Notes: generated from the letters alone by a model not told the origin. DNA of 64,000 nt from Gemmatimonadales bacterium (GCA_036558345.1 DATBFV010000125.1:10848-74847), one strand, 5' to 3'. Counted from the stretch's first letter, positions 2,340 through 50,264 are shown. Numbers and translations are program-made.

Positions 2340-2340
2340 T

Positions 2341-2417
2341 GCGGATTGTCGATTGCGGATTGCGGATTCGATCCGTCAAGCGTCAAACCCGCAATCGTCA
2401 ATCCGCAATCCGCAATC
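2341..2417. repeat. Intergenic inverted repeat built from GATTGCG heptamers (ftsW-murG spacer)
   Basis: GATTGCGGATTGCGGATT (2351..2368) is the perfect reverse complement of AATCCGCAATCCGCAATC (2400..2417). An alternative pairing is 2341..2358 with 2390..2407, with 1 mismatch. Confidence 0.8.
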
Positions 2418-10825: not shown

Positions 10826-11136
10826 TACGGCCGGTCTCGCGGTTCAGGAGGTTGGTGAGAGTCTGACGGTGTCGGGATCAGAATGATCTCGGTGTCGGCC
10901 GGCAGGCGCAGGCCAAGCTTCTGCGCGCGCGGCAGCAGCACTGCGCGGCTCTGGCCTGTGCGCACGCGCCGCTCGAGATCGGCCCGGCGGCCCTCCAGCG
11001 CGGCACGCTCTCCACGCAAGTCTGTCAGGGCGCGCGCCGCGTTGAGCGCGGAGGTCTGCCGCGCGATGACGAGCCACAGCGCCCCCAGCAGCGCGACGAG
11101 CCAGACCGCGATCCAGTGACGGCCTCTAAGCTTCAT
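10825..11136 (-). CDS. FtsL-like bitopic cell division protein
   Basis: Start trimmed to the ATG at 11136. MKLRGRHWIAVWLVALLGALWLVIARQ forms a single TM, followed by a coiled-coil-like segment. Its position between rsmH and ftsI is typical for ftsL. No strong sequence signature. Confidence 0.55.
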   Translation of the reverse strand: MKLRGRHWIAVWLVALLGALWLVIARQTSALNAARALTDLRGERAALEGRRADLERRVRTGQSRAVLLPRAQKLGLRLPADTEIILIPTPSDSHQPPEPRDRP

Positions 11137-12067
11137 CGCTGGAGACTTTCTCGAACGCCCGAAACTGCGCCGAGCGGGCGCGCGGGTTCGCCGCGACTTC
11201 TCGGGCCTCGGGCACGATCGCCTTCTTCGTGAGCACTCGTCCCAGCGGCTTGCCGCGGCACGTGCAGACAGGCTGCCGGGGCGGGCAGATGCACGCTCGG
11301 CTCCATTCGCGAAACGCATGCTTCACGATCCGGTCTTCGCCGGAGTGATACGTAATCACACCGAGCCGACCGCCGGGCACGAGGGCATCGCGCAGTGCCG
11401 GCAGAGCGGTCGACAGTGTTTCGAGCTCGTCATTCACCGCAATGCGGAGTGCCTGAAACAGCCGCGCGAAGTCCGCGGGGCCGGACCGCGGGCCGAGCAC
11501 CGCGCGAATGGCGTTCACGAAGTCATCACTGACGCTGAAAGACGCCGAAAGACGCCGGCGGACAATCTCTTTTGCGAGCGCGCGTCCCCGCCGCTCGTCC
11601 GCGTAATCGGTAAACACCGCAGCCAAGCGCTCGACCGGCCACGTATTCAAAATGTCGCGAGCTGTCACCCCGGCTCGGGTCATCCGCATGTCGAGCGGCG
11701 CCCCGGGCCGAAAAGTGAACCCGCGCTCGAGCGTATCGATTTGATGTGAGCTCACGCCGAGGTCGAGCAGAATGCGATCGGGGTGAAAGGCAACAATGGC
11801 GGCAAGGGCGGCAGGGGCGGCAAAGGAGGCTTCGAGATACTGGATGGCGTCGATGCCCAGACGGGATTGGGCCGCCGCAATTGCCGCTGGATCACGATCA
11901 ACACCGAGGACGGCGGCGCCGAGTTCGCGCAGGATCGCGGCGTGACCGCCGCCGCCGAGTGTCCCGTCGACCGCGCGCGTACCCCCGGTCGCCCATTCTC
12001 TGACGGCCTCGGCAAGTACCGGGATGTGATAAGGGGTCGAGGGTGACTCCGACGCGGCCGTGAGCAC
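11126..12067 (-). CDS. rsmH: 16S rRNA (cytosine1402-N4)-methyltransferase RsmH/MraW
   Basis: 313 aa. HIPVL, TLGGGGHA and DLGVSSHQ motifs. GTG start at 12067. Confidence 0.92.
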   Translation of the reverse strand: MLTAASESPSTPYHIPVLAEAVREWATGGTRAVDGTLGGGGHAAILRELGAAVLGVDRDPAAIAAAQSRLGIDAIQYLEASFAAPAALAAIVAFHPDRILLDLGVSSHQIDTLERGFTFRPGAPLDMRMTRAGVTARDILNTWPVERLAAVFTDYADERRGRALAKEIVRRRLSASFSVSDDFVNAIRAVLGPRSGPADFARLFQALRIAVNDELETLSTALPALRDALVPGGRLGVITYHSGEDRIVKHAFREWSRACICPPRQPVCTCRGKPLGRVLTKKAIVPEAREVAANPRARSAQFRAFEKVSSDEA

Positions 12068-12070
12068 TCT

Positions 12071-12110
12071 CCAAAATAAGAAGAACCCCCGCCACTATGG
12101 GCGGGGGTTC
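12071..12110 (-). terminator. Rho-independent terminator downstream of tRNA-Asp
   Basis: On the minus strand, an 11-bp perfect GC stem (12083..12093 / 12100..12110) with a 6-nt loop is followed by TTCTTCTTATTTT. Confidence 0.85.
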
Positions 12111-12130
12111 AAGTCGTCGGGGTACTCAGG

Positions 12131-12204
12131 CGGGGCTGACGGGGCTCGAACCCGCGACCTCCGGTGTGACAGACCGGCGCTCTAACCAGCTGAGCTACAA
12201 CCCC
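12131..12204 (-). tRNA. tRNA-Asp (anticodon GTC)
   Basis: Reverse complement: GGGGTTGTAGCTCAGCTGGTTAGAGCGCCGGTCTGTCACACCGGAGGTCGCGGGTTCGAGCCCCGTCAGCCCCG. Cloverleaf folds; anticodon loop is CTGTCAC; CCA is not encoded. Confidence 0.92.
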
Positions 12205-12262
12205 AAAAGCCCCTCACAGAGCGCCGGAATATAGACCCGGGGTTAGGTCAATTCAACGCCCG

Positions 12263-14074
12263 CTACAGCGCCGGGCTGCACTTGAATGCCGCCTGTACCG
12301 ACGGCTTCGCCTTTTCGTACTGCGCCACGAATCCCAACATCTGGTCCGCCGTCGGCGGGTGGACCCGACGCCCGAGCAGCAGCGCCGCTTTGGTACGCGA
12401 CAGGCGCTCGAACACCGAACGCGCTTGCGGGCACCGTGCAGCGCCTTTCGCCTTCGTCATATCCTGATACGGGCCGTTGAGTGTGAGAACGGACGAGAGA
12501 CCATACCAGAAGCTCCCGTTGATGCGCACCTGGTGCTTCGGTCCCAGGGTATCCGAGGCGGTACGGGGCTGGTAGCCGATGATCGAGAGCAGCGAATCGG
12601 TCCATTGATAGGCCGCGGGATACGCGCCGACCTGCGCGATCTTCGAGCCGGCCGTCAGCATGATTACCGATGCCGCGAGGCGCTGCGTGGAGTCGCTCGA
12701 GGCGAGACCGGGTTTCAGATAGGGTTTCGCCGAATCGATTTTTTGCACAAACGTCGCTCGCAACCGGTTTTGCGCAGCCGTATCGGATTTCGGTATGTGG
12801 TTGATAGCCGCAGTATCCCACACCGCTCGATCCACCAGCGTTTTGGCAACCTGCAGGCTGGTGGCGACGTCGTTCGGCTCGATCGCCAGAGCCTTCTTGT
12901 AGAAGATCAGCGCTGAATCGGTCTTGCCGGCGAGCTCGTACGCGCCTGCGCGCGCTTTGACATAGCTCGCATTGTTCGGGAAATGCTTCACCGCCGCGCC
13001 GGTTATCATCATGAGCGCGGCTGTGTCGGACACCTGCTGTGCCGCTCCAATCGCCGGCTTCAAGAACGTCGTGTCGCCACCGAGCGCGGAGTCATGCTCG
13101 AGTTTTGCGACCCATACGTCGCTCGCGCAGCGGAAGTTCGAGCTCTCGGTGCAAATCGTGAGCTTGTACTCGAGCAGCTGCTGTTCGCCCGGCATCAACT
13201 TCAATCCTTCATCCAGCACGTGCACCGCGCGATCGGTATTGTGGTTCAGCTTGAGCAGCTGCGCGACGCCGAGGCGCTTCTGAACGTTGCGCGGCTCGCC
13301 GCAGAGCTGTTGGACATAGGCATCCATAGCCTTCGCCGTATCGCCCTTCTGTTGATAGCCGCTCGCGAGCTTCTCCAACGCGGTCCCGTTGCAGGAATCG
13401 CCTTTCAGCGCTTGCTGCGACGCGTAGATCACGCTGTCGATCGGCGCGCGCTGCGCCTCGTGGATCGTCGCGATGCAGAGCCACGCGCCCGTGGAGTTGG
13501 GATCGATCTGAAGCGCCTTGTTGGCCGCGGCGCGCGCGCGTGAGAACTGGCCTTTGCGCCGTTCGTCATTGCAATCGCGTACCGGCTCACTGATCCGCAC
13601 CATCTGCGCAATCCGCTGGGCGATGCCCTCGGCCATCGCCGCCGGTGCTCCCGGGGTTCCGTTCGCTGTCGTGAACCGGCCCGCGATTCCCGACGAACCG
13701 ATATCGTACACCTGCACGTCCGCGCCCTGCTTCGCATAATCGCCGTGGACGTAGGAGTGCACCTGGAGGAACCGCGCGAGCTGCTTCGCCTGCTGCTCAT
13801 CGAGCAAGCCGTTGCACGCGAATCCCGACTGGCCGAGCGCCTCGCACAGCTTCGCTTTCGTCACGACCATGACTTTGCTCTTGACGAGCTGATTGACGCG
13901 GTCGCGAACGGCGTCAGACAACGCGATGGCGGCCGCCGAGTCGGCCGGCGTGTTCCACATGAGGGGCAGGATCAGCAATCGTTCGGTCGGCTGTGCCGGC
14001 GCGGCCAGCTGCTGCGCGCGCGCCGTCAGCACAACCCCGAGCGTCAGCCCCACTGCGTATTGAAGCGCTCTCAC
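12263..14074 (-). CDS. Secreted TPR-like repeat protein, Cys-rich
   Basis: 603 aa. Signal peptide MRALQYAVGLTLGVVLTARAQQ. TPR-like helical repeats (ALQIDPNS, ALAIEPND). About ten Cys. Confidence 0.7.
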   Translation of the reverse strand: MRALQYAVGLTLGVVLTARAQQLAAPAQPTERLLILPLMWNTPADSAAAIALSDAVRDRVNQLVKSKVMVVTKAKLCEALGQSGFACNGLLDEQQAKQLARFLQVHSYVHGDYAKQGADVQVYDIGSSGIAGRFTTANGTPGAPAAMAEGIAQRIAQMVRISEPVRDCNDERRKGQFSRARAAANKALQIDPNSTGAWLCIATIHEAQRAPIDSVIYASQQALKGDSCNGTALEKLASGYQQKGDTAKAMDAYVQQLCGEPRNVQKRLGVAQLLKLNHNTDRAVHVLDEGLKLMPGEQQLLEYKLTICTESSNFRCASDVWVAKLEHDSALGGDTTFLKPAIGAAQQVSDTAALMMITGAAVKHFPNNASYVKARAGAYELAGKTDSALIFYKKALAIEPNDVATSLQVAKTLVDRAVWDTAAINHIPKSDTAAQNRLRATFVQKIDSAKPYLKPGLASSDSTQRLAASVIMLTAGSKIAQVGAYPAAYQWTDSLLSIIGYQPRTASDTLGPKHQVRINGSFWYGLSSVLTLNGPYQDMTKAKGAARCPQARSVFERLSRTKAALLLGRRVHPPTADQMLGFVAQYEKAKPSVQAAFKCSPAL

Positions 14075-15410: not shown

Positions 15411-16189
15411 GTGGACTTCGCCTTCTCCTGATCGCCCGCGAACCAGTGCGCGCGCCCCAGCTCGTAATACGCTTCGATCAGGTTCGGCCCCAACTTGAGC
15501 GTCTTCTGGAAGAACGTCTCCGCATCCTCGTACATCTCGCGCTGCAAATACACGAGGCCGAGATAGAAGTGCGCGTACAACGTCGCCTTCTTGTCGTTGT
15601 CCAGCCGGATGGCCTTGGAGAGGTGCTCGATCGCCTCGCCGAAGATCTGCTTCTTGAGGCAGATGTAGCCGACGTTGATTCGCGCGAGCGAGTTCGCCGG
15701 CTCTTTCATCAGAACCTTCTGGAACGTGCCGAGCGCATCATCGTAGTCCTCGTGCAGCATCTGCGCCCAGCCCAGCAGCGACTCGGCCTTGGTCTCGCCG
15801 GGTGAGAGTTGCAGCGCCTTGGCAAGCGCCTGAATCGCACCGGCATGATCGCCAAGCGAGATGAGACTCCACCCTTTTTCGATGAACGTGGAAGCGCCGA
15901 TGTGATCGGCGTGCATCGCGGGCCGCTCGCCGGTGAACACCGGCGCCGCGGCCTGCTTGGTATCGGGGGTGAGCTGCTTATACCGATCGACGAGCTGGCG
16001 GATGTCCTCCTTCAACTGCGTCAGCTCACCCAGTTGCCCGTCGACCTTCTTGAAGAACGCGATGATCTCGCGCTTCGTGGCTTCGCGCTCGGCGCTGCCC
16101 CCGGCCGGGCCGGAAGCGGCACCGTCGAGCTTCCTCGCGATGGCGTCGTATTCCCGGCGCAGCGTCTCGACCGGTGATTCGTCCGTCAT
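15308..16189 (-). CDS. TPR repeat protein with N-terminal coiled-coil segment
   Basis: Start trimmed to the ATG at 16189 (ATGA overlap with the cheW stop). MTDESPVETLRREYDAIARKL..., then about 5 TPRs. The 496-aa track ORF carries an Arg-rich artefactual N-terminus. Confidence 0.75.
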   Translation of the reverse strand: MTDESPVETLRREYDAIARKLDGAASGPAGGSAEREATKREIIAFFKKVDGQLGELTQLKEDIRQLVDRYKQLTPDTKQAAAPVFTGERPAMHADHIGASTFIEKGWSLISLGDHAGAIQALAKALQLSPGETKAESLLGWAQMLHEDYDDALGTFQKVLMKEPANSLARINVGYICLKKQIFGEAIEHLSKAIRLDNDKKATLYAHFYLGLVYLQREMYEDAETFFQKTLKLGPNLIEAYYELGRAHWFAGDQEKAKSTWQDGFKANKFNPWGKRCQEMLELVAKGEEPPRD

Positions 16190-16659
16190 GTGGCTCCCTG
16201 CAGGGCCAGTTTCTCTTGCGAGTTGAGCAGCTTGTTCGTATTCAGCACGACAATCGTGCGGCCATTCTGCACGACCAGCCCGGCGATGTATTCTGCCGCG
16301 AGCCCGCGCACGATGCCGGGGGGCGGCGTCACAGCCTGGGCCGCTACCTGCATCACCTCGGTCACCGCATCGACGATCACGCCGATCTTGCCGCCGTCGA
16401 ACTCGAGAATGACCGTCCGAGTGTCCTCGCGGAGCGGCGCGGCCACACCGAAACGCTTGCGCAGATCCACGAGCGGCACGGCGCTTCCCTGGTATTGCAG
16501 CACGCCTTCCAGAAACTCCGGGGCCTTGGGCAGCGGCGCCGGCGCTTCGTACCGCAGAATCCGCTCGACCTGAAAGATGTTGAAGGCGAAATCCTGGCCG
16601 GCCACCTTGAACGTGACCAGTTGGACGTCGTCGCCGCCGGCACTCGAGATCGTGCTCAT
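16186..16659 (-). CDS. cheW: Chemotaxis coupling protein CheW
   Basis: 157 aa. LVTFKVAGQDFAFNIFQVERIL...GVLQYQGSAVPLVDLRKRFG is a typical CheW fold signature. Confidence 0.88.
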   Translation of the reverse strand: MSTISSAGGDDVQLVTFKVAGQDFAFNIFQVERILRYEAPAPLPKAPEFLEGVLQYQGSAVPLVDLRKRFGVAAPLREDTRTVILEFDGGKIGVIVDAVTEVMQVAAQAVTPPPGIVRGLAAEYIAGLVVQNGRTIVVLNTNKLLNSQEKLALQGAT

Positions 16660-17081
16660 GTGATGCGATCACTGAGGGCATCGAGATCGAGGATCGGCAC
16701 CAGCCCGCTCTCCTGCTTGGCGACGCCTGCGGCCCACGGCAGCGATTGCCCGCGCGGCACCGGCAGCGGCTGCTCGCGCACAACGGCATCGGCATCATCC
16801 ACCTCGAATGCGACCTGGCGATTTCGCGCGCCGCTGCCGAGCTCCACGAGCACGACGGTCCGCAAGACCGCCTCCCCGACAGCTGGAGCCTCGCGACCGG
16901 TGAGCAACGCGCCGAGGTGAATGAGCGGCACGAGACGGCCGCGCAGCGGCGTCAGACCGCGAATGGACGGGAGCTTGCGCGGGACCTGCAATACTTCCGT
17001 CGTGTCGCCTACTTCGAGCACGCGAGCGACCGGGAGGCCGTAGGGCTTGCCTTCGGAACGCACGAGCAAGTAGCCCTTCAT
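16656..17081 (-). CDS. Divergent CheW-like protein
   Basis: 141 aa. [21 protein letters not shown]...[18 protein letters not shown] follows the CheW pattern but is more divergent. Confidence 0.65.
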
Positions 17082-18187
17082 CGGATTCCCTTACGCACCA
17101 GCTCGACGGCCACCCGCTCGGCGATTTGCGCGAGCGGTAGCACCGCGTCGACGCCGCCCGCCTGCACCGCGGCCCCCGGCATGCCATGGATCACCGATGT
17201 CTCGCGGTCCTGGGCGAAGCCAGAGCCGCCGGCGTCCTTGATCGCGCGCAGGCCGCCGGCGCCGTCGCGGCCCATGCCGGTGAGCACGACGCCAACACTG
17301 CGAGCGCCGTACACTTCGGCGATCGAGCGAAACAGCGGATCGGCCGCCGGCCGGACACCCCAGAGCGGGGCTGATTGGTCGAGCGCGATTACCGGACCGT
17401 CGGGAGCAGAGCGCACCCGCATATGATAATCGCCCGGGGCCACATATGCCGTGTCGGCCACGATCGGTGCGCCGTCATCCGCCTCGACGACGCGCAGGCG
17501 ACTCATCGAGTCGAGCCGCTCTGCGAGACTGCGCGTGAATCTGGGCGGCATGTGTTGCACGACCAGAACCGCCGCACCGCGGCCGGTGGGCAGGCGCGGC
17601 ACCACATCCGCGAGCGCGCGCGGCCCGCCGGTGGATGCGGCGATTCCGACGGCCAGCAATGCCCGCCGGCGCAGGCCCAGATCGGGCGGGTGGATGACTT
17701 GTGCCGGCGGCCGCGCCAGGACCTTGACGTGAGAGACGTCCGCGGCGAGCGCGCGGCGCAGCGCCGCGATCAGCTCAGGCGCCAGCGCCTCCAACGCGGC
17801 GCGCGGATGCCCAAAGCCCTCGGCCGGCAGCGGCGGCTTCGCGACGATTTCCACCGCGCCGAGCTCGAGCGCGCGGATCGCCGCCTGGGTCCCCGGGCCG
17901 GCGTGCGCGCTCACGACGACGATGGGCCGCGGCGCCTCGGACATGATGTACCCGATGGCGCCCAGCCCATCGAGGTGCGGCATCTCGAGATCGAGTGTGA
18001 CGACGTCGGGCCTGTACTGATGGACCTTCCGAATCGCGTCGATGCCGTCGCGGGCCGTCGCCACCACGTGAAACTCGCCGTTTTGCGCATCACCGCCGCC
18101 GAGGACATCGACGAGCACCCGCCGCATGAGGGCGCTGTCGTCGGCGACCAGAACCGTCGGCCGCTGGGATTCAGATGACGTCGACAT
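17078..18187 (-). CDS. cheB: Chemotaxis response regulator protein-glutamate methylesterase CheB
   Basis: Start trimmed to the ATG at 18187. REC domain ([22 protein letters not shown]) plus methylesterase domain ([26 protein letters not shown]). Confidence 0.9.
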
Positions 18188-18653
18188 TGGTCCCCACCGA
18201 CCGGATCTCGACGCGCCCGTCTCTGACGTGGAATCGGATGCTGCGGCCGCGCTCTCCGCCGACCGATTCCCGGATGATGGGAATGGCGGCCAGGCGCAGT
18301 GCGCTGCGGCACGCGAGCACGTTCCGCTCTCCCATCTGGATGGTGCCGGGTGTGACGAGCTGGCTGAACATGCTCGCGCCGCCTGCCAGCTTGGCGACCA
18401 GCCGCCGCGGGTCCGCGCCCAATCTGGTGAGCCGCTCGATGAGCATCGGTACGGCAGTGTCGGGAAACTTGGCGGGATTACTCGTGTCGCGGGCGAGGCT
18501 GGTGGACGGCAGCAACACGTGCGCCATGCCTCCGGCGCTCGTCGCCGCATCGTGCAGCATGATGGCAACGCACGAGCCGAGTCCGAGCGTCACCAACACT
18601 CCGTCACCCCGCTCCGCGGCCCAGTCGGCAACTCTGACGATGACTTCCTTCAC
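18171..18653 (-). CDS. cheD: Chemoreceptor glutamine deamidase CheD
   Basis: 160 aa from the GTG at 18653 (GTGA overlap with the cheR stop). [15 protein letters not shown]...GGMAHVLLP. Confidence 0.88.
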
Positions 18654-19438
18654 GCGGGCTTCATATAGATCCGCTCGCGCGGATCCACGACCTTGAGGCG
18701 CTGGCGCGCGGGCCCGAACAGCGTCTCGACCTTGCCGAGCAGCAGCACCCCAGCGGGCCGCAGCGCGTCGACAAATACCTGAAACAGCCGCTCCTGCGCC
18801 GATCGCGCGAAGTAGATCACGACATTGCGGCAGACGATCAGGTCGTACGGCGGCTTGGGCGGCGCGTCGCGCGTGAGATCGTGGGGGATCACGTTGACCA
18901 GCTTGCGAACCTCGGGCACCGGCTGGCCATCCAAGAAATAGCGACGCCGCAAGGCCGCGGGCATTTCGGTGAACGCGGTATCGGGATACTTCGCCTCGCG
19001 GGTGCGCTCGAGGCTCAACCGATCGATGTCGGTCGCATCGATGGTGCCCTGCGCCTGCACCTCGGCGAGCAATACCGCGATCGTGTAGGGTTCTTCGCCG
19101 GACGCACAGCCCGCGGACCAGATCCTGAGCGGGCGACGCCTTTCGGTCCAGAGATCCTTGAGAACCGGTCGCAGCGCGTCCCACGTTTCCGGATTGCGAT
19201 AGAATTTCGTGACGTTGATGGTCAGCGCGTCGACCAGCTCTTGATACTCGTGCGGATCGCGGTCGAGGAGTTTGGCGTAGTCGTCGTAGGTGTGGATGCC
19301 GCGCGCCCGCATGCGCACGGCGATGCGGCGTCGCAGGCACTTGTCCTTGTAGGAGCCGCAGCTCATTCCCCGCTCGCGCGAGATCTTCTGCGTCAGCGCT
19401 TCGAAGGCTCGCTCCTGCGGAGCCTCCGCGGGTTTCAC
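18650..19438 (-). CDS. cheR: Chemotaxis protein methyltransferase CheR
   Basis: INVTKFYRNPETW and SAGCASGEEPYTIA (SAM-binding site). Start placed at the GTG 19438, overlapping the upstream TGA. Confidence 0.88.
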   Translation of the reverse strand: MKPAEAPQERAFEALTQKISRERGMSCGSYKDKCLRRRIAVRMRARGIHTYDDYAKLLDRDPHEYQELVDALTINVTKFYRNPETWDALRPVLKDLWTERRRPLRIWSAGCASGEEPYTIAVLLAEVQAQGTIDATDIDRLSLERTREAKYPDTAFTEMPAALRRRYFLDGQPVPEVRKLVNVIPHDLTRDAPPKPPYDLIVCRNVVIYFARSAQERLFQVFVDALRPAGVLLLGKVETLFGPARQRLKVVDPRERIYMKPA

Positions 19439-21051
19439 GAGAGACTGCTCAGCGTGTCCAGATTCGCCCTGACGAGCTCGTGTTTGGGATTGAGCTCCAG
19501 CGCGCGCCGCCACAGCTCGCTCGCGTGCTCGCGGTCGTTTCGCTTATACGCGATGTTGCCGAGCTTGAAGTAGACGTCGTCGCCGAGCTCGGGCGAGAGA
19601 TCGATTGCGCGCTGATACAGATCCCACGCCTCGTCGTAGCGCGAGCTGCGGTAGGCGAGATCGCCGAGATTCTTGGAGAGCTGCGGCAGTGAGGGCTCGT
19701 CCCGCAGTGCCGCGCGCGCCAGCTCCTCCGCTTGCGCCAAGTCTCCGGCCAGTTCGTGCAGGACGGCGAGGTTGTTGCGGAGCACACCATGCTGCGGATG
19801 GGCTTCAACGGCCTGACGCGCCACCTGCTCGGCCGTTTCGAAATCGCCGGCTGCCGCGGCGGACAGCACGCGGGCCCAAAACCAGATCGGCGGCACCTGC
19901 TCGGCGAACAGCTCTTTCGCGCGGTCGAGCCGCCCGGTGGCGCCGGCGTGATCGCCCTGTTTGAGGGCGACGATCCCCCAGCCGAGATAGATACGTGGGT
20001 CGGTTTTTGCCCGCGATGCCGCTTCCGAGTAGGCGGCCTCGGCGTCCTCGAGCCGGCCGAGCTGCTCGTACGCCAGGCCGAGATTGTGGAGCACGGCGGG
20101 GCGCGAGCCGCCCTTTTCGGCGGCGAACCGCAGCGCCTCCATGGCCTCGCGCCAGCGCGCCTGTTTGAGCGCGACGAGACCAATGAAGAAATGCGCGTTC
20201 GCATCCGTCGCGCGCAGCTCCGCCACGCGGCGAAATTCGCGCGCGGCCTCGTCCAGCATCCCCGTCTTGTAGAACGCGATGCCGAGATTGCGGTGCTCCT
20301 CCACGCGCGCATCGGTCATTTTGACGTCTTCGGCGCTGACGGTGCGGCCGGCGCGATGCAGGAATCCCGCGGTGACGAGGCCGTAGAGCGCCTTGCCGAC
20401 TTCGAACTCGCCGAGCCCCGAGTCCTCGATGACCTGATTGACGTCGCGCGAGCCGTCCAGTAGCGAGAGTAGCCGGTCCTGAACCTCGGTCAATTTGGCG
20501 TCGCTGATCGCGAGGCGGTCGCGGTCCACGAGGAATATCAGATCGAACGACGGGATTTTCTTCTCGATCAGCCCCCACTCGTCCACGCGCCGCGCCCCTT
20601 CCAGGAGCAACGACTCGGGATTGATGGAAACGAGGAAGTCCTGCTGCTCCGGACGGACGTCGGCCTCGAAGTTGAACGTGCCCTGCGTCCACGTGAACAA
20701 ATAGTAGACCGACTCCTCGATCTGCATGCGCATGTAGCGCTCGAGCTCCTGCTGCGTGAGCACGTTCTGCACGACGAGGATTTCGCCCAGCTTCTTGTCG
20801 CGCGCCTTGGACTGGCGATGGATCGCGGCGTCGAGCTGCTCCTGCGTGATTTTTTCGTGCTTGACCAGGATGTCGCCGAGACGATCGCGCCGGTTGACGA
20901 TCGAGGCGTACGAGATGCGGCCCTTGTCGAAGTAGATGTAGCCGAAGTTCGAGCGGTCGGCGATCGACAGGCAGCCGGTCTTCTGCCCCAGCGCGAGCAG
21001 CTGCAGCACGTCGGGCAGCGAGGCTTCTTTGAGCGAGCCCTTGATCGCCAT
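19435..21051 (-). CDS. DUF4388 (PATAN)-domain protein with C-terminal TPR array
   Basis: 538 aa. N-terminal MAIKGSLKEASLPDVLQLLALGQKTGCLSI...GYIYFDKGRISYA is a DUF4388 signature. About 7 TPRs from about aa 250. Confidence 0.8.
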   Translation of the reverse strand: MAIKGSLKEASLPDVLQLLALGQKTGCLSIADRSNFGYIYFDKGRISYASIVNRRDRLGDILVKHEKITQEQLDAAIHRQSKARDKKLGEILVVQNVLTQQELERYMRMQIEESVYYLFTWTQGTFNFEADVRPEQQDFLVSINPESLLLEGARRVDEWGLIEKKIPSFDLIFLVDRDRLAISDAKLTEVQDRLLSLLDGSRDVNQVIEDSGLGEFEVGKALYGLVTAGFLHRAGRTVSAEDVKMTDARVEEHRNLGIAFYKTGMLDEAAREFRRVAELRATDANAHFFIGLVALKQARWREAMEALRFAAEKGGSRPAVLHNLGLAYEQLGRLEDAEAAYSEAASRAKTDPRIYLGWGIVALKQGDHAGATGRLDRAKELFAEQVPPIWFWARVLSAAAAGDFETAEQVARQAVEAHPQHGVLRNNLAVLHELAGDLAQAEELARAALRDEPSLPQLSKNLGDLAYRSSRYDEAWDLYQRAIDLSPELGDDVYFKLGNIAYKRNDREHASELWRRALELNPKHELVRANLDTLSSLS

Positions 21052-23006
21052 TAGCGCAGATCCTCGATCACGCGGTCAGCCGCCGTCGGCCAGTCCCAGA
21101 CCATCTTCTCCCGACTGCGCACGCCGCCCGCGCTGGAGACGACGATGCCGCTGGTGCGCAGCCCCGTCGAACGCCGCGGCGCGGGCGTGCCTTCCAAAAC
21201 TTCACGCGCCAAACCCGCCGTCACCGGCGCATCTTGCGCCGCGGCGGCCTCGATGATCCGTTGCACGACGCCGGTCAAATTTCGCACCGAGTCGATCGGC
21301 CGGTCGGCCAGATAGTCGATGAGCGCGGGTTCCAGCGGGACGCGATGCTGCGTGAGCAACCGCTCCAGCATTCCGCGACGCAGCTCCTTGTCCGGCTCCG
21401 CGATCGCCGCCACGAGACCGCCCTCGAGCCGGGAAACGATGCGCTCCTCGATGCCCTCGAGCGTGTTGGGATGGGCGGGAGCCGTGAAGATCAGCTGGCG
21501 ATCGGCGTCCACCAGGTGATTGAACAGGTTGAACAGCTCCTCCTGCGTCCGTTCTTTCCCGGCGAGCAGCTGGATGTCGTCCAGCAGCAACGCGGTCGCG
21601 CGGCGGTAGCGCGCGCGCCACCAGTCCACGCGGTTGCCGTCGATCGCGGCGATCAGTTCGTCGACAAACTGCTGCGTCGACAGGCAGGCGACGACGGCGT
21701 TCTTCTTTTTCGCAAGCTCGAGACCGATCGCATGGAGCAGATGGGTTTTCCCGAGGCCGCTCCGACCCACGATGACGAGCGGATTGTATTTCTTGCCGGG
21801 CTTTGCGATCACGTCGCGAGCCGCGTTCAGCGCGACCTGATTCGATGAACCGGCGCAATATGCGTCGAGGGGGAAGGCTCCCGAAGGCGCGGGTGGCGGC
21901 GCGGCACCGTCCCGCACTTTGGCCGCCGCCGCTTCCGCCGCGTCCATGTGATCCGGATCCCGAAACACCTTCTCGCCGGCAGCCTGCGGATCGAGCACAG
22001 CGACTTCCGCCTCGAGTTCCTTGAGTCGCTCGACGTCCTGCACGTACGCCGCGATCGCTTCGTCCACGGCGGCGGGCGTTTCCTGCTCGAGCAGTTTTTC
22101 GAGCCGGCCGGTCCGGTAGCCTTCGCCTTCCCAGCGCATCACGGCCTCGGCGACGCGGGCGCGCCAGGCTTCGACGGCCTTGCCGACCGTGACGGTCACG
22201 TCGGTCAGAAATTGTGAAAACTCGTCGCCGGAAGACGCCGGCGTCGCCGGAGGGGAGGCACTCGTTCCGCGTCCCTGGTCCCCTTTCCCCGCAATTCCGA
22301 GGACCTTGCGGACATTCTCCTCATTGATCGGCACGTCGTTCACGGCCTGGAACGCAACCAGACGATTCAGCGCGCCCATGAGCTCGCGCACGTTCGGGTA
22401 TTCGACTTTCGCGACCGTTTCGAGGACGCCGGGCTGGAACTTGGTGCCGCGCTCCTCGGCTTTGCGGCGCAGGATCGCGACGCGGGTCTCGTAATCGGGG
22501 ATGCCCATGTCCACGACGAGCCCACCGGAGAAGCGCGAGATCAGTCGCTCGTCCAGATCGGCGATCTCTGCGGGCGGGCGGTCGCTCGCGAGCACGATCT
22601 GATGACCGGATTGCTGTAGTGCTTCAGTCAATCGGAGCAGCTCGGTCTGCATCTCCTTGCGATTCGTGAGGAACTGAACGTCGTCGACGAGCAGCACATC
22701 CACGTTCTGAAACCGACGGCGGAACGCGTCGCCCTGCCCGGCGGCGATCGCCGCATGGAAGGCCTCGACGTATTCATCGAGCGTCAGGTATTCGATATTG
22801 AGCTGCGCGGCGATGATCTTCGCGGCGTGACCGATCGCCATGAGCACGTGGGTCTTTCCGAGTCCAGAGCCACTATAAATGAAGAGGGGGTTGTAGGCGG
22901 AGCCGGGGTTTTCGGCGACCGTACGACCGGCGGTGACCGCCAGCCGATTGGCCGCGCCCACCACGAACGTCTCGAAGGTAAAGCGGGGATTCAACGCGCT
23001 GGTCAT
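21051..23006 (-). CDS. Tandem DnaA-type (domain III) AAA+ ATPase lacking DnaA domains I and IV
   Basis: 651 aa. Module 1 (about aa 5-225): NPRFTFETFVVGAANRLA, SGSGLGKTH, LLVDDVQF, IVLASDRPP, RLISRF, NVRELMGAL. Module 2 (about aa 378-600): GRSGLGKTH, LLLDDIQL, LIFTAP, RIVSRL, SVRNLTG. No DnaA_C helix-turn-helix is present. Confidence 0.85.
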   Translation of the reverse strand: MTSALNPRFTFETFVVGAANRLAVTAGRTVAENPGSAYNPLFIYSGSGLGKTHVLMAIGHAAKIIAAQLNIEYLTLDEYVEAFHAAIAAGQGDAFRRRFQNVDVLLVDDVQFLTNRKEMQTELLRLTEALQQSGHQIVLASDRPPAEIADLDERLISRFSGGLVVDMGIPDYETRVAILRRKAEERGTKFQPGVLETVAKVEYPNVRELMGALNRLVAFQAVNDVPINEENVRKVLGIAGKGDQGRGTSASPPATPASSGDEFSQFLTDVTVTVGKAVEAWRARVAEAVMRWEGEGYRTGRLEKLLEQETPAAVDEAIAAYVQDVERLKELEAEVAVLDPQAAGEKVFRDPDHMDAAEAAAAKVRDGAAPPPAPSGAFPLDAYCAGSSNQVALNAARDVIAKPGKKYNPLVIVGRSGLGKTHLLHAIGLELAKKKNAVVACLSTQQFVDELIAAIDGNRVDWWRARYRRATALLLDDIQLLAGKERTQEELFNLFNHLVDADRQLIFTAPAHPNTLEGIEERIVSRLEGGLVAAIAEPDKELRRGMLERLLTQHRVPLEPALIDYLADRPIDSVRNLTGVVQRIIEAAAAQDAPVTAGLAREVLEGTPAPRRSTGLRTSGIVVSSAGGVRSREKMVWDWPTAADRVIEDLR

Positions 23007-24084: not shown

Positions 24085-24428
24085 GCCCCCGCCTCCGCCG
24101 CGCGCAGCAACTCCAGGCGCACCAGCCCAATATTCACGTCGGGCTCGGCGACCGCGACGACCAGGAGATTGCCCGACGCTTCGCCGCCCGGCACGACCAG
24201 CAGGGCCCCCTGTTCGGCCTGCAGGTGCCAGAACACGCTCGACCCCGTTCCTGCCGCCTCCATGGCGCGACGCAACCGGCCGGCAAGGCTCGCGGCGAGT
24301 GCGGCGACAGCGCCGCCCTTGATCCCTTCCATGAGCTGCTCGGCGACGACCAGCCCATCTTCGGCTGAGACGAGCATCGCGCCGCGCACTCCGCGCACCC
24401 GCGTGATCAGATCGAGCGCTTTGCTCAT
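24081..24428 (-). CDS. Roadblock/LC7 domain protein (MglC-like paralogue)
   Basis: 115 aa. VRGAMLVSAEDGLVVAE...NIGLVRLELL. Confidence 0.75.
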   Translation of the reverse strand: MSKALDLITRVRGVRGAMLVSAEDGLVVAEQLMEGIKGGAVAALAASLAGRLRRAMEAAGTGSSVFWHLQAEQGALLVVPGGEASGNLLVVAVAEPDVNIGLVRLELLRAAEAGA

Positions 24429-25261
24429 TGCTGTTCCAACCAGCGGCGCGCCATCAGTGTCGCGCGCTGTGCGACAATCGCGAGCCGGCCGAGCGGGATG
24501 CCGCGATCGCGCACGACGAGCAGCAACGCTTCGGGGGTGGGATGCGCGAGGTGCACGTTGCCGTGCTGCCCTTCCGCCGAGAGGCCGTTCCAGGCGCCGA
24601 GACCGAGGAGCTTGGCAGTCCGCGCCGCTTCCTGCGACACACCGGCCAGGTACGCAGCGACGGAGTCGGTGACGTCCTTTCCCCCGCCGTCCTTCAAGGC
24701 GCCACCCAACACGCGACCAGCACCGTCGATGAGCAGCAGACCTTCGTTGGCACCTTCGAGACCGGCAAAGACGCGAGCTTCGTCGAGGGCGCTGGTGCCG
24801 GCAGTCGCCGAAGGAGCGCCGGCGGATGCCGTAGGGGCGGGAGCCGGTTCTGGCGCAGGCGCGGTGCCGCCGCCGCGGATCATCTCCAACGCCTGATCGA
24901 TGCTGGGGTCATCGGGCTCGACCCTCTTGGCGGCCGCGAGATGCGCTTCTGCCTGCTCCAGATCTCCGACCTTGAAATAAAGGAAGGCGAGGCCCTTCAG
25001 CGCGCCGGTGTGGTGAGGCGCGATGCGCACCGCCATGTCCCACTCGTCGAACGCCTTTTCGTATTCGTGCCTATCCGTCAAGATGCGGGCATAGAGGTCG
25101 TGGGCGTCGGCCAGATGCGGATGGCGCTCCAGGCCGTTCGCCGCCACCCGCTGCGCCGCGTCGAGCTGCCCTTTGCGTCGCAGCGCTTCGCCGAGCCGCA
25201 GGAAGACAAGGCTCTGCGGATCCTGCGCGAGCTGCGCCGACAGCGCCCGGATGTCATCCAT
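24425..25261 (-). CDS. TPR - Roadblock/LC7 fusion protein
   Basis: Start trimmed to the ATG at 25261. About 3 N-terminal TPRs, a Pro/Ala linker, then a C-terminal GLLLIDGAGRVLGG...LLLVVRDRGIPLGRL Roadblock-like domain. Confidence 0.7.
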   Translation of the reverse strand: MDDIRALSAQLAQDPQSLVFLRLGEALRRKGQLDAAQRVAANGLERHPHLADAHDLYARILTDRHEYEKAFDEWDMAVRIAPHHTGALKGLAFLYFKVGDLEQAEAHLAAAKRVEPDDPSIDQALEMIRGGGTAPAPEPAPAPTASAGAPSATAGTSALDEARVFAGLEGANEGLLLIDGAGRVLGGALKDGGGKDVTDSVAAYLAGVSQEAARTAKLLGLGAWNGLSAEGQHGNVHLAHPTPEALLLVVRDRGIPLGRLAIVAQRATLMARRWLEQQ

Positions 25262-29183: not shown

Positions 29184-29801
29184 TCAGCTCAACCGGATGG
29201 CGTCGAAAATCGCTTTGAGGGACGCCAGGTCGGGCAACAGCAGGAAGTGACCGCGCAACCCGTCCCGCGCATCGATATTGAATTCCGTCTCGACGCAAAA
29301 CACGAAGTCGCGGTCGTGCCCGAAGTTCAAATACGTCGTCGTCAGGACAGCGGCCGAGAGATCCACGACCAGGCTGGGCACCGAAGGCAGCAGCAACATC
29401 CCCATGAATTCCGACAGCGCGTTCATGTAGGCGCCGGAAAGGATGTTGCCCGCTTCCTTGAGGCACGATTGCTCGAGCGTTTCGAACGTCTTCGTCGTGC
29501 CGAGCGGCCGCTTGAGCAGCATGTCGCATAACTGCCGCCCGACCGTCTCTGGAAACAGCAGCAGGGTGCGGCCCGTGAGGTCGCCGAGCATGTGCATGAG
29601 AACCGCGGTGACCACTTCCTGCGGATCTCCGATCAGCCCCGAGACCTCTTCCAGCCTCGCGATGTTGATCCGGGGCACGGAAATCATGATGCGCCGGTGC
29701 GTGAGCTGCGACAACGCCGTCGCGGCGTGGCCCGCACCGATGTTGGCCACTTCCTTGAGCGCGTCGAGCTGCAGCGCTTTCAGATCACGGACGTCTTCCA
29801 T
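29184..29801 (-). CDS. cheC: CheY-P phosphatase CheC
   Basis: 205 aa. Two ExxN active-site repeats: LKEVANIGAGHAATALS and LKEAGNILSGAYMNALS. Confidence 0.85.
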   Translation of the reverse strand: MEDVRDLKALQLDALKEVANIGAGHAATALSQLTHRRIMISVPRINIARLEEVSGLIGDPQEVVTAVLMHMLGDLTGRTLLLFPETVGRQLCDMLLKRPLGTTKTFETLEQSCLKEAGNILSGAYMNALSEFMGMLLLPSVPSLVVDLSAAVLTTTYLNFGHDRDFVFCVETEFNIDARDGLRGHFLLLPDLASLKAIFDAIRLS

Positions 29802-29808
29802 GAGTCTC

Positions 29809-31731
29809 CTAGACCAGTCCAGCGGCGTCGAGAATCAGAGCGGGCACGCCATCGCCCATGATGGTGGCTCCACTGAACACCGGCAATGTACCCTCGGGGG
29901 CGTCGAATCCCTTCACGACGATCTCCTGCTGGCTCAGCATGCCGTCCACGACGATGCCGGCCCGGCGCTCACCCATCTCGAGAACAATCACGGGTCGCCG
30001 GGGAGGCGGCGCGGGTGCGCCACCATTCGTGCCGAGCAGCTTGCGCAGATCGATGAGCGGCACCACGCGATCACGCAATACGATCGCGTCGCGTCCTTCC
30101 ATCGTGGTGGTCGGCGTCGTGCCGTACTCGACCGTCTCGGCGACATAGGTGAGCGGCAGCGCATAGCGCTCCTGCCCCACCGCCGCGATCAAGGCGCGGA
30201 CGATCGCGAGCGTGACCGGCAGCCGGAGCACGAACGCGGTGCCCTTCCCCGGTTCCGTGCGGATTTCGATCGATCCGCCGAGCGCGCGGATGCGCGTCAT
30301 GGCGACATCGATACCGACGCCTCGACCGGACACGCTCGTGACGGACTCCGCCGTCGAGAACCCGGGCCGCGCCAGCACGCGCAGCAGCTGGTCATCGGAC
30401 AGCGAATCGACCTTCGGACCGACGATGCCTTCGCGCTTCGCCTTCGCGAGGATCTTCACGCGATCGATGCCGCGGCCATCGTCCGAAATACTGATCGCCA
30501 CGCTGGATCGCTCGCGTACCGCCGCCAGGACGACCTCGCCCTCGGGGTTCTTCTTGCGCCGCTTCCGCTCGGCGGGCGGCTCGATGCCGTGATCGACGGC
30601 GTTGCGCAACAGATGCATGAGCGGATCGCCGAGCTCGTCGAGGATTTCGCGATCGAGCTCGATCTCCTTCCCCTCGACCCGAAATGAGACCTGCTTGCCG
30701 AGCTGACGCGCGACGTCGCGCACCAGCCGGGGGAAACGGTCGAATACCTGCCACACCGGCGTCATGCGCGCCTGGATGATTTCGTTTTGCAGATCGGCGG
30801 AGAGCCGCGAGATCTGAATCGCGACTTCGTCGATCTCAGGATCACCGCCTCGACCGATCCAGCGGGCTGCGAGCTCGTTCAGGCGGCCGCGCTCGGTGAC
30901 GAGCTCACCGATCAAGTCCATGAGCGTGTCGAGGCGGCGCAGGTCGACGCGGATGTGCCGGCTGCGTCCGGCGCCGCCCGCGCCCGCGCCGCCCGCCCCA
31001 CCGACCTCTGCCGCGCCGAGCGGACCCTCGTCCACCGCGCTACCCACCGTGACGTGCTCGACGTCCCCAACGGACCGAATCGCCGCCTCGATATCGGCCG
31101 GCGAAGCAGCCGTGTCGAGCTCGAGGACGAAATGCCCATCGAAATCGTCCGACTCAAACGTGGTGGCAGGCGGCTGCACCCGGACGACCGAACCCAGGCC
31201 TTGGGCCTTGCGCAGCGCCAGCATCGCGCGGCCACCTTTGAGCGGCGCTTCGGGGCGAATCTGCACGCTGATGAGCCTCCCAGAGCCAGCCGGGGCCGCG
31301 ATGGCATCGGCGGCGGGAGGCGGCGATGGGGCGGCGGATGCGGAGACGGGCTGCTTGACCGACACCCCATCGATGGCGGCAAGCACGCCGGCGAGATCGG
31401 CTTCGCGCTCACGTCCCGCGACAGCGAGTCCGACGGCTTTCTCGAGCGCATCGGTGGCGCGAAACAGCAGCTGGATGATCTCGTCGCTGGGCGCCTTGCC
31501 GCCGCGCCGGAGGTGGTCGAGCAGGTTCTCCATGCGATGCGCGAGGTCGGCGACGCGGCCGTAACCCATCGTGGCCGCCATGCCCTTGATCGTATGGACG
31601 GCGCGAAACAGCCCGCCGACGGGCTCCAGCGCGGCAGGGTTCCGCTCCCACTCGAGCAACAGCTGATTGCAGGCGCTCAAGTGCTCGCGGCTCTCGGCCA
31701 GGAACAGCTCGGCGTACTGCGACAGATCCAT
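29809..31731 (-). CDS. cheA: Chemotaxis histidine kinase CheA
   Basis: 640 aa. Hpt (FRAVHTIKGMAATMG), dimerisation domain, HATPase (DDGRGID, SGRGVGIDV), C-terminal CheW-like P5. Confidence 0.93.
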   Translation of the reverse strand: MDLSQYAELFLAESREHLSACNQLLLEWERNPAALEPVGGLFRAVHTIKGMAATMGYGRVADLAHRMENLLDHLRRGGKAPSDEIIQLLFRATDALEKAVGLAVAGREREADLAGVLAAIDGVSVKQPVSASAAPSPPPAADAIAAPAGSGRLISVQIRPEAPLKGGRAMLALRKAQGLGSVVRVQPPATTFESDDFDGHFVLELDTAASPADIEAAIRSVGDVEHVTVGSAVDEGPLGAAEVGGAGGAGAGGAGRSRHIRVDLRRLDTLMDLIGELVTERGRLNELAARWIGRGGDPEIDEVAIQISRLSADLQNEIIQARMTPVWQVFDRFPRLVRDVARQLGKQVSFRVEGKEIELDREILDELGDPLMHLLRNAVDHGIEPPAERKRRKKNPEGEVVLAAVRERSSVAISISDDGRGIDRVKILAKAKREGIVGPKVDSLSDDQLLRVLARPGFSTAESVTSVSGRGVGIDVAMTRIRALGGSIEIRTEPGKGTAFVLRLPVTLAIVRALIAAVGQERYALPLTYVAETVEYGTTPTTTMEGRDAIVLRDRVVPLIDLRKLLGTNGGAPAPPPRRPVIVLEMGERRAGIVVDGMLSQQEIVVKGFDAPEGTLPVFSGATIMGDGVPALILDAAGLV

Positions 31732-31734
31732 GGG

Positions 31735-32097
31735 CTAGCCGAGCACGCGCTGGACGGCTTCGAGAACGCGAGAGGGTTGGAACGGCTTTACGACGAAGTC
31801 TTTGGCGCCGGCCTGAATCGCCTCGACGACCAGCGCTTGCTGGCCCATCGCGCTGCACATCAGGATCTTCGCGTCGGGATCCTGCTTCACGATCTCGCGG
31901 ACGGCGTCGATCCCACCCATGTCGGGCATCACGATGTCCATCGTGACGAGGTCGGGCTTGAGCTGACGATACTTCTCGACGGCCTGCGTGCCGGTCTCCG
32001 CTTCGCCGACGACCTCGAATCCTGCTTGCGCCAGGATGTCGGTGATCATCGTACGCATGAAGATGGCATCGTCACAGACGAGAACCGTATGGCTCAC
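31735..32097 (-). CDS. cheY: Single-domain response regulator CheY
   Basis: 120 aa. VLVCDDAIFMR, LVTMDIVMPDMGG, FVVKPF. Confidence 0.9.
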   Translation of the reverse strand: MSHTVLVCDDAIFMRTMITDILAQAGFEVVGEAETGTQAVEKYRQLKPDLVTMDIVMPDMGGIDAVREIVKQDPDAKILMCSAMGQQALVVEAIQAGAKDFVVKPFQPSRVLEAVQRVLG

Positions 32098-33599: not shown

Positions 33600-34111
33600 G
33601 GTTCGGCGGCGCTCGCCTCCTTCGCCCGTTGCTGCGCGCGGCCTTCCTGCCAGAGCGAGAGACCGAGCGCGATCGCACCGATCGTGATCGCCGAATCGGC
33701 GACGTTGAACGTGGGCCAGCGCCAGGCCCCCACGCCCACGTCGACGAAGTCGACGACGCCCTGCGCGCTGCGGATGCGGTCGATCAGATTGCCCACCGCG
33801 CCTCCGCACACCAGGGCGAGCGCCATCAGCCGGAACCGGTCACCAGGGCGCGTGCCCCGCACCAGGGACGCGAGCACGAACAGCGCGATGACGGCGAGGC
33901 CGAGGAAGATCCAGCGGGAGTTCTCGCCGACGTGCAGACCGAAGGCGGCGCCTTCGTTGTAGACGAGGCGAAACTGCACGGCATCGCCGATCACCGACAG
34001 CGGCAGGCGCCGCGCCAGGAATGACTCGGCGATCAGCTTGGTGACAAAATCGGAAGCGACCACGGCGACGGTCGTTCCCCAGAACAGCCGGCGCTCAGCG
34101 GCGCTTACCAT
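33596..34111 (-). CDS. lspA: Lipoprotein signal peptidase II
   Basis: 171 aa. VYNEGAAFG and FNVADSAITIG motifs; 4 TM segments. Confidence 0.9.
   Translation of the reverse strand: MVSAAERRLFWGTTVAVVASDFVTKLIAESFLARRLPLSVIGDAVQFRLVYNEGAAFGLHVGENSRWIFLGLAVIALFVLASLVRGTRPGDRFRLMALALVCGGAVGNLIDRIRSAQGVVDFVDVGVGAWRWPTFNVADSAITIGAIALGLSLWQEGRAQQRAKEASAAEP

Positions 34112-48282: not shown

Positions 48283-50264
<1,982 letters not shown>

Follow-up and report, generated by a model that had tools for sequence, protein, structure and literature searches.

Architecture of the tDnaA Locus

We analyzed a 64,000-nucleotide stretch of DNA from a Gemmatimonadales bacterium (GCA_036558345.1, DATBFV010000125.1:10848-74847), referred to below as the window, and focused on a 651-residue protein that is encoded on its minus strand from an ATG start codon, carries two DnaA-type AAA+ modules in a single chain and is here called tDnaA. 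The gene lies in a 16-kb operon with the order CheY-CheA-CheC-TPR-PATAN/TPR-TPR/Roadblock-Roadblock-MglB-MglA-tDnaA-PATAN/TPR-CheR-CheD-CheB-CheW-CheW, followed after the second cheW by genes for a TPR protein, a Peptidase_MA_2 protein and a further TPR protein. All genes between 12.2 and 32.1 kb are on the minus strand, and the GC content of the window is 0.61-0.70. The gene directly upstream of tDnaA encodes a true group 1 MglA, which matches Myxococcus xanthus MglA (PDB 5YMX) over residues 1-197 with E=5.5e-72 and conserves the LYTVPGQ motif. A previous sequence-only reading of the window had described overlaps of the tDnaA gene with both neighbors, and these can be read directly in the sequence: the start codon overlaps the mglA stop codon as ATGA, and the TAA stop shares one base with the ATG of the downstream PATAN-TPR gene as TAATG. 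The 4-nt overlap with mglA recurs in 73 of 75 related loci, and in 75 of 76 the tDnaA stop and the PATAN-TPR start are separated by -1 to +1 nt. Such an arrangement is typical for subunits of one complex and therefore favors membership of tDnaA in a complex.

Both Modules Belong to the DnaA Clade

The two halves of tDnaA are of the DnaA clade and not of the Hda, DnaC or IstB clade. The Pfam family Bac_DnaA (PF00308) matches the protein twice (Table 1), and the NCBIfam DnaA profile TIGR00362 (437 positions) aligns aa 2-236 (module 1) and aa 377-605 (module 2) to its positions ~101-337, which confirms the two DnaA-type modules proposed from the sequence alone and refines their limits. Searched separately, module 1 scored 280 bits to TIGR00362 (profile positions 101-335) versus 89 bits to the Hda model TIGR03420, and module 2 scored 236 versus 98 bits, the curated cut-offs being 343.9 bits for TIGR00362 and 194.8 bits for TIGR03420. 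HdaA models gave at most 60 bits, and the profiles of DnaC, DnaI and IstB matched weakly, with scores far below those of DnaA. Module 1 matched domain III of Bacillus subtilis DnaA (PDB 8bv3) with a sequence E value of 1e-57, and its AlphaFold model superimposed on that domain with a root-mean-square deviation (rmsd) of 1.2-1.3 Å at 44% identity (Foldseek). PDB 3r8f and 8btg were also among the Foldseek matches of tDnaA, and no tandem DnaA structure was present among the PDB matches listed.

Domains I and IV of DnaA are missing, again as had been proposed. No Pfam match to DnaA_N (PF11638, domain I) was found in tDnaA, which begins only 4 residues ahead of the domain III entry motif, and no match to Bac_DnaA_C (PF08299, the domain IV helix-turn-helix) was found in the whole protein or, at E<=10, in the tail alone; canonical DnaA proteins scanned likewise do show PF08299. 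Domain IV recognizes DnaA boxes and domain I is the platform for binding DnaB and regulators, so tDnaA is not expected to recognize DnaA boxes or to offer such a platform. By inspection, neither tDnaA, whose N terminus reads MTSALNPRFTF, nor the family consensus contains an Hda-like N-terminal beta-clamp motif (QL[SP]LPL-like).

Catalytic and DNA-Contact Residues

All eleven motif strings that we tested from the sequence-only reading were located in tDnaA, namely SGSGLGKTH (45-53), LLVDDVQF (105-112), IVLASDRPP (137-145), RLISRF (154-159) and NVRELMGAL (205-213) in module 1, GRSGLGKTH (414-422), LLLDDIQL (473-480), LIFTAP (505-510), RIVSRL (522-527) and SVRNLTG (573-579) in module 2, and KMVWDWP in the tail. 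The other strings quoted there are visible in the translation, and the Walker A, Walker B, sensor I, box VII and sensor II assignments made for both modules thus stand. Residues were mapped onto Escherichia coli DnaA, with the numbering confirmed by a script. Module 1 is intact (Walker A K51, Walker B D108/D109, sensor I D142, box VII R154/R158, sensor II R207), as is module 2 (K420, D476/D477, box VII R522/R526, sensor II R575), the sole exception among the catalytic elements of tDnaA being Pro510 at the sensor I position of module 2. Judged by these residues, tDnaA is an initiator-clade AAA+ protein in which both predicted ATP sites and their box VII arginine fingers are complete.

We then counted the same motifs in 91 cluster representatives of 600-720 aa. 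The Walker A lysine of module 1 is present in 91/91, the Walker B aspartate in 90/91 and the sensor II arginine in 85/91, while the arginine finger is retained in 61/91 for module 1 and in 79/91 for module 2; the Walker A lysine of module 2 is found in 82/91 and its site is intact in 76/91. One subclade has a wholly degenerate module 2 ATP site and keeps both box VII motifs, and another has lost both arginine fingers and keeps both P-loops. Nucleotide binding by module 1 is the only catalytic feature predicted to be universal in the family, and the near-universal module 1 site, together with the patchy loss of the fingers and of the module 2 site, is more in keeping with a switch driven by nucleotide binding than with an engine that must hydrolyze ATP. 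Association tests, which are weak here and subject to phylogenetic confounding, gave no support to a correlated loss of the module 1 arginine finger with the module 2 ATP site (p=0.37; 12 of the 15 members with a degenerate site keep R158).

At the positions of the E. coli single-stranded DNA (ssDNA) contacts V211 and R245, module 1 of tDnaA has His84 and Glu118. Family-wide, module 1 carries His/Arg and Glu/Asp at these positions, the R245 equivalent being acidic in 64/91. Module 2 of tDnaA keeps Ile452, Lys484 and Arg486 within a near-canonical LAGKERTQEE segment, and among the representatives 60/91 retain Arg486 and 43/91 retain Ile452.

A Private Helical Domain and a Conserved Tail

The sequence-only reading had placed a helical/Pro-rich linker of ~140 residues between the modules. 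The segment does separate them, and it has two parts: aa 239-271 are a disordered stretch of Pro/Ser, and aa 266-367 form a helical domain that is folded. An AlphaFold2 (AF2) model built with a 30-sequence family alignment gave a predicted local distance difference test score (pLDDT) of 87 and a predicted TM-score (pTM) of 0.50, i.e., the domains are confident and their mutual arrangement is not; pLDDT falls below 50 at aa 239-271, where the alignment columns of the family are gap-rich and poorly aligned. The helical domain folds when predicted alone (pLDDT 88.7, pTM 0.72) and carries the motifs DEFxxFL, WRxRVxEAxxRWEGEGYRTxRLExLL and FRDPD, with G296 and L302 invariant. It matches no Pfam or NCBIfam family and has no significant fold match in the PDB (best E=4.4). 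Histidine phosphotransfer (HPt) proteins were tried as a candidate fold for the linker and rejected (E>=4.4, TM-score 0.22-0.25, no conserved His).

At the other end of the protein, aa 611-633 are disordered in the AF2 model just ahead of a conserved motif formed by the last 20 residues, REKMVWDWPTAADRVIEDLR, in which E633, K634, W639 and P640 are each at least 90% conserved. Among the 75 representatives with a tail, nearly every one has these four residues, and the family pattern is EKMVWxWP...IEE. The private linker and tail residues are invariant down to 31% identity, which indicates that these added parts are under selection. With an acidic C terminus (...IEE-x-x-COOH) encoded beside five TPR proteins, it is tempting to speculate that the tail is a TPR-docking peptide.

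Distribution and Evolution of the Family

When 1.84 billion cluster representatives were searched exhaustively without a profile, many full-length matches of ~650 aa were obtained, down to 31% identity, and a word-indexed search returned thousands of tDnaA relatives at ~90% identity, with full-length homologues of 645-655 aa. The members that carry an organism name are all from Gemmatimonadales, Gemmatimonadota or Gemmatimonadetes, except P0301 from 'Candidatus Cloacimonetes bacterium 4572_55'. A scan of GTDB (one genome per species) with a 9-sequence alignment of the linker found 250 relatives, and the best 80 of these 250 are metagenome-assembled genomes (MAGs) of Gemmatimonadota bar three, labelled Myxococcales, Thermoleophilaceae and 'uncultured bacterium'; the Myxococcales- and Thermoleophilaceae-labelled genomes look mis-binned, since their synteny is identical. 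Among the Gemmatimonadota sampled, the family occurs in the main lineages, and it is conserved at ~650 aa under clear purifying selection.

In a neighbor-joining tree, the module 2 sequences form one clade and the module 1 sequences lie nearer to canonical DnaA. Mean identity is 37% between module 1 and DnaA, 30% between module 2 and DnaA and 28% between the two modules, compared with a mean of 60% for canonical DnaA domain III sampled across phyla. The tree and these means together indicate that the tandem architecture arose once and evolves fast. In distant loci tDnaA is 31-45% identical, the same pace as the TPR and PATAN proteins, with MglA at 68-75% and CheY at 68-88%. As a side observation, a DnaA-type AAA+ module also occurs in very large proteins of 897-1990 aa and in an 839-aa zinc-ribbon fusion (together P0212, P0215, P0223, P0185 and P0327), which may mean that further architectures outside initiation have taken up the domain.

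Genomic Context across Relatives

When the operon proteins were compared by tblastn with 80 genome loci, the same gene order was found wherever the contig was long enough, with identities of 58-92% for tDnaA and 79-96% for MglA. The linkage of tDnaA orthologues to mglA, which the sequence-only reading had proposed to examine, holds for the main Gemmatimonadota clade, where the overlap described above is nearly constant, and does not extend beyond it: three loci (L081, L090 and L086) have tDnaA and no MglA. Locus L084 (tDnaA 35% identical) lies at the same chromosomal position and has the order CheY-CheC-TPR-PATAN/TPR-TPR-Roadblock-MglB-MglA-tDnaA-PATAN/TPR, with no CheA, CheR, CheB or CheW at the locus. 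L081 and L090, from the '4572_55' lineage (tDnaA 31% identical; GC 0.49 in L081), read CheW-CheY-CheA-P-loop protein-CheW-CheC-TPR-PATAN-tDnaA, with no MglA, MglB or Roadblock protein at either locus. In L086 (GCA_003697105.1) the only shared neighbor, encoded ahead of tDnaA, is the large TPR homologue, and no MglA, MglB or PATAN protein is encoded at the locus. Homologues of the large TPR protein are neighbors of tDnaA in L081, L084-L088 and L090, and in every context with upstream DNA. The large TPR protein is the constant neighbor of tDnaA and PATAN a nearly constant one, and MglA, MglB and Roadblock proteins are confined to the main Gemmatimonadota clade. In the window and across ~90 related loci no replication gene was found in the neighborhood.

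Some further features of these loci were recorded. The P-loop protein of the Che cluster is an AAA_22/AAA_16 protein of 265-272 aa (L081 4035-4853, L090 3743-4561, L088 15934-16731), absent from the window and present in the lineage that has no MglA. L086 carries two bactofilin genes (3765-4667) ~5-6 kb upstream of the TPR-tDnaA pair, which may be coincidental. On the long-read contig of L089 (7552-10244), tDnaA is split into genes of 410 aa and 300 aa and mglA encodes only 150 aa; a natural split of tDnaA was considered here, and the breaks were judged to be probably indel errors, since mglA is also truncated.

A Separate Canonical DnaA and a Misleading Label

No second dnaA is present in the 64-kb window. 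A canonical dnaA-dnaN locus elsewhere in the genome, which the sequence-only reading had thought worth confirming, was found for one family member: the ENA record ERZ25039495 contains a 773-kb contig encoding a canonical 455-aa DnaA (DnaA_N, domain III and DnaA_C) followed by dnaN, recF and gyrB, and also a 348-kb contig with the tDnaA member P0132. The dnaA contig and the P0132 contig have GC contents of 0.70 and 0.69 and a tetranucleotide correlation of r=0.97, both are also found under NCBI genomes, and they most probably belong to one MAG. Module 1 shares no more than 34-39% identity with this canonical DnaA, so the tandem protein is not a recent copy of the resident initiator. A second candidate, the DnaA_N plus domain III fragment P0267, is 58% identical to module 1 and was set aside as a named canonical DnaA of Gemmatimonadota, its named relatives being Alphaproteobacteria; its best relative, P0433, is in the same ENA record as a tDnaA contig, which is suggestive and no proof.

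Family members are named 'chromosomal replication initiator protein DnaA' by JGI and some other sources. The whole of tDnaA scores 512 bits to TIGR00362, above the cut-off, with each module below it, and the label is therefore an artefact of two sub-threshold scores being summed. It may mislead the prediction of origins and the counting of core genes in Gemmatimonadota MAGs.

A Proposed Switch or Scaffold Derived from DnaA, and Its Rivals

We tentatively interpret tDnaA as an ATP-dependent switch or scaffold that was exapted from DnaA and works with TPR and PATAN partners in a polarity/Che module. We prefer this explanation because of the private domain and tail, the co-translated neighbors, the scaffold-like rate of evolution, the charge reversal in module 1 and the patchy losses of sites; in addition, the position of tDnaA directly after TPR-PATAN genes, or after a TPR gene alone, even in loci without MglA supports the partnership with TPR and PATAN proteins. 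Of the roles suggested by the sequence-only reading, a nucleotide-dependent scaffold is thus the one we favor, and a link to the cell cycle is kept as its main rival.

Under the switch or scaffold model, tDnaA would have left the replication origin, keeping two domain III cores and losing domains I and IV, and would have gained the private helical domain and the conserved acidic, Trp-rich C-terminal tail. ATP at the always-intact module 1 site would set the conformation or the head-to-tail oligomeric state, as for DnaA, and in the protein of the window the module 2 site, also intact, could take part. The task of reading or setting this state would fall to the co-translated large TPR and PATAN-TPR proteins, joined in Gemmatimonadales by MglA-GTP, MglB and the Roadblock proteins under the control of CheA/CheY. 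The architecture, motif states, family, synteny and gene overlaps are observed; beyond them, we infer that tDnaA associates with TPR, PATAN and MglA proteins, that it oligomerizes in response to ATP and that it has no origin or ssDNA function. If correct, the model would add an AAA+ element to prokaryotic small-GTPase polarity systems and would show the re-use of an initiator ATPase.

Several observations weigh against a switch or scaffold. The AF2 monomer gives no reliable geometry between the modules. Module 1 is 39-50% identical to domain III of real DnaA proteins, so co-assembly with DnaA is possible, and the position of the operon beside the dcw cluster fits a role in the cell cycle at least as well. 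Finally, with its contact residues kept in module 2, the tDnaA of the window may still bind DNA.

The main rival, which we consider unlikely, is that tDnaA regulates replication or the cell cycle by docking on DnaA, either capping or poisoning its filament or supplying an Hda-like arginine finger that stimulates hydrolysis of DnaA-ATP, so that the polarity or chemosensory state would gate the initiation of replication. Regulators that act on DnaA domain III have precedents in Hda/HdaA, Soj and YabA. Such a role would draw on the DnaA-clade nature of both modules, on the resemblance of module 1 to domain III, on the arginine fingers and ATP sites, all intact in the tDnaA of the window, on the fixed location of the operon beside mraW-ftsI-mur genes and on the canonical dnaA in apparently the same MAG as a tDnaA gene, which makes a partner available. 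However, no Hda-like clamp motif is visible and both Hda scores lie well under the cut-off, evolution is much faster in the family than in DnaA, both arginine fingers or the whole module 2 site are gone from several subclades, and no replication gene lies near tDnaA in ~90 loci. If it proved true, the sensing of polarity or of the environment would be linked to the control of replication by a new route.

Rather less probable still is a broader proposal in which tDnaA is a phylum-wide exapted hub through which MglA and the chemotaxis-type kinase pathway act, maybe signaling back to DnaA or the dcw genes. A hub of this kind would couple cell polarity and behavior directly, at the molecular level, to the chromosome cycle in Gemmatimonadota, a phylum whose cultured members are described with budding-like division.

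That tDnaA is a nucleic-acid anchor, in which module 2 would hold ssDNA or RNA and attach the TPR/PATAN/MglA complex to the nucleoid, thereby giving it a cue to position, seems to us quite improbable. The three module 2 residues noted above, which belong to the H/B motifs of DnaA, and their partial retention among relatives speak for it. DnaA holds ssDNA through a multi-protomer filament that is nucleated by domain IV on double-stranded DNA, and it is this domain that tDnaA is missing; the ssDNA-contact residues are, moreover, not conserved family-wide and are charge-reversed in module 1. A catalytically dead relic, i.e., a pseudo-ATPase serving as a passive spacer, would agree with the loss of arginine fingers and of the module 2 site in some subclades, and is very improbable given the near-invariant Walker A, Walker B and sensor II of module 1 in the 91 representatives and the intact state of all catalytic motifs but the module 2 sensor I in the tDnaA of the window. 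That tDnaA is the chromosomal replication initiator, a name that JGI and some pipelines give it and that its whole-length score would support, is effectively refuted by the make-up of that score from two modules below the cut-off, by the missing domain I and domain IV helix-turn-helix, by a context without dnaN, recF or gyrB and by the canonical DnaA beside dnaN-recF-gyrB in the ENA record of P0132.

Comparison with Known Systems

We compared tDnaA with the DnaA structures PDB 8bv3/8btg, 2z4r and 1l8q/2hcb/3r8f. It shares with DnaA the initiator-clade AAA+ fold with its lid and the DnaA versions of Walker A, Walker B, box VII and sensor II, but differs in having two modules per chain, no domains I, II and IV, an added helical domain and tail, altered ssDNA-contact residues in module 1, no origin or dnaN context and a faster evolution. 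Hda and HdaA are likewise DnaA-like AAA+ proteins without a DNA-binding domain, but Hda is a single module of ~230 aa with an N-terminal beta-clamp motif, whereas tDnaA has two modules and other partners. DnaC, DnaI and IstB belong to the same initiator/loader super-clade and have a single module with different N-terminal domains. The type II AAA+ proteins p97, NSF and ClpB also carry two AAA+ modules per chain, one site being more degenerate (Foldseek E~1e-14 for p97, spanning both modules); they are classic AAA+ proteins and not of the initiator clade, the identity is 14-17%, the rmsd exceeds 17 Å, which makes the module arrangement not comparable, and tDnaA shows no sign of stacked hexameric rings.

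On the side of its partners, the tDnaA operon resembles the MglA-MglB-(MglC/RomR-RomX)-SgmX polarity system and the Frz pathway of M. xanthus in encoding MglA, MglB-like and Roadblock proteins, large TPR proteins and a Che-type pathway, whereas the PATAN-TPR fusions and tDnaA are specific to the operon studied here; in the literature retrieved on the M. xanthus polarity and Frz systems, no component of AAA+ or DnaA-like type is described. Wuichet and Sogaard-Andersen (2014; PMC4316618) recorded that Gemmatimonadetes have group 1 MglA, with occasional PATAN neighbors, and none of the passages on AAA/ATPase terms in that survey concerns a DnaA-like partner of MglA or PATAN. Like the PATAN regulators PatA and the cyanobacterial PixG/PixE types, the operon involves DUF4388/PATAN, which is encoded beside tDnaA almost everywhere; its PATAN domains are joined to TPR repeats or stand alone, with no receiver-domain fusion. 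Regulators of this kind are reported to bind the type IV pilus motor (bioRxiv 10.1101/2021.06.11.447907). No pilus genes are present in the window.

The sequence-only reading could match no described function to tDnaA, and in the literature we searched there is no description of a protein with tandem DnaA domains, or of MglA or PATAN having a DnaA-like partner. To our knowledge, DnaA-type AAA+ modules are known only from the initiation and control of replication (DnaA, Hda), from helicase loading and from transposition (DnaC, DnaI, IstB). What is new in tDnaA is a DnaA/Hda-family AAA+ protein with a new architecture, accessory domains and a non-replication context: the family puts two DnaA modules without DNA- or helicase-binding domains inside an MglA/MglB/PATAN/TPR/Che operon.

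Operon Neighbors and Surroundings

The features of tDnaA and of its operon are collected in Table 1. Three Roadblock/LC7-type proteins are encoded in series ahead of mglA, the first of them fused to TPR, a set that resembles the MglB/MglC type; the L088 and L089 equivalents of the TPR/Roadblock gene carry PF03259. Despite CheY, CheA, CheC, CheR, CheD, CheB and two CheW proteins, no gene for a methyl-accepting chemoreceptor lies within the operon block, so CheR, CheB and CheD have no locally encoded substrate.

Table 1. Features of tDnaA and of neighboring operon genes, numbered from the first nucleotide of the window
Feature	Position	Strand	Basis
tDnaA, tandem DnaA-domain-III AAA+ protein, coding sequence including stop	21051..23006	-	ORF (open reading frame); PF00308 twice, E=1.7e-103
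Module 1, aa 2-236, DnaA-type AAA+ with lid	22299..23003	-	TIGR00362, 8bv3, Foldseek, motif mapping
Disordered Pro/Ser-rich spacer, aa ~237-265	22212..22298	-	AF2 pLDDT; gap-rich alignment columns
Family-specific helical domain, aa 266-367	21906..22211	-	AF2 of the region alone; family alignment
Module 2, aa 377-605, DnaA-type AAA+ with lid	21192..21878	-	TIGR00362; motif mapping
C-terminal tail motif, aa 632-651, REKMVWDWPTAADRVIEDLR	21054..21113	-	Conservation in family alignment
mglA, 200 aa	23003..23605	-	M. xanthus MglA 5YMX
mglB-like Roadblock/LC7, 158 aa	23608..24084	-	Pfam Robl_LC7; PDB MglB 6h5b E=1.8e-8
Second Roadblock/LC7, 115 aa	24081..24428	-	PF03259 E=1.6e-9
TPR protein with probable C-terminal Roadblock-like half	24425..25255 (start approximate, ORF to 25531)	-	TPR Pfams; syntenic in 62 loci
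Upstream PATAN (DUF4388)-TPR, 383 aa	25254..26405	-	PF14332 E=5.8e-33
Large TPR protein, 923 aa	26409..29180	-	TPR Pfams
cheC, cheA, cheY	29184..32097 (cheC 29184-29801, cheA 29809-31731, cheY 31735-32097)	-	Pfam; synteny
Downstream PATAN (DUF4388)-TPR, 538 aa	19435..21051	-	PF14332 E=8e-39 and TPR
cheR	18650-19513	-	Pfam; synteny
cheD	~18171-18660	-	Pfam; synteny
cheB	17078-~18160	-	Pfam; synteny
cheW	16656-17081	-	Pfam; synteny
cheW	16186-16659	-	Pfam; synteny

The block is flanked upstream by ileS, a dksA-like zinc-finger gene and lspA, and downstream by mraW, ftsI, probably murE and cell-wall genes (flanks at 1254-14074 and 33596-37711, with ORFs scanned from 8867 up and the murE call probable); the L084 counterpart of the probable murE carries Mur-ligase domains. 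The chromosomal position of the operon is fixed in Gemmatimonadales: the dcw division cluster follows it directly, and with the same orientation, in L084, in L088 and in the window. A role in anti-phage defense was considered and rejected: PADLOC found no defense signature, the match of tDnaA being no larger than a P-loop and those of two neighbors being short, partial and for the most part in TPR regions, and the locus sits at a fixed chromosomal place among housekeeping genes. The cumulative GC skew falls monotonically along the window, which therefore contains no origin or terminus. The rest of the window holds housekeeping genes, almost all on the minus strand, among them those for a DAC-domain (c-di-AMP synthase) protein, folP, FtsH, enolase and Lon, and including genes at 41970-42770, 48279-50264 and 60823-63264, all three on the minus strand.

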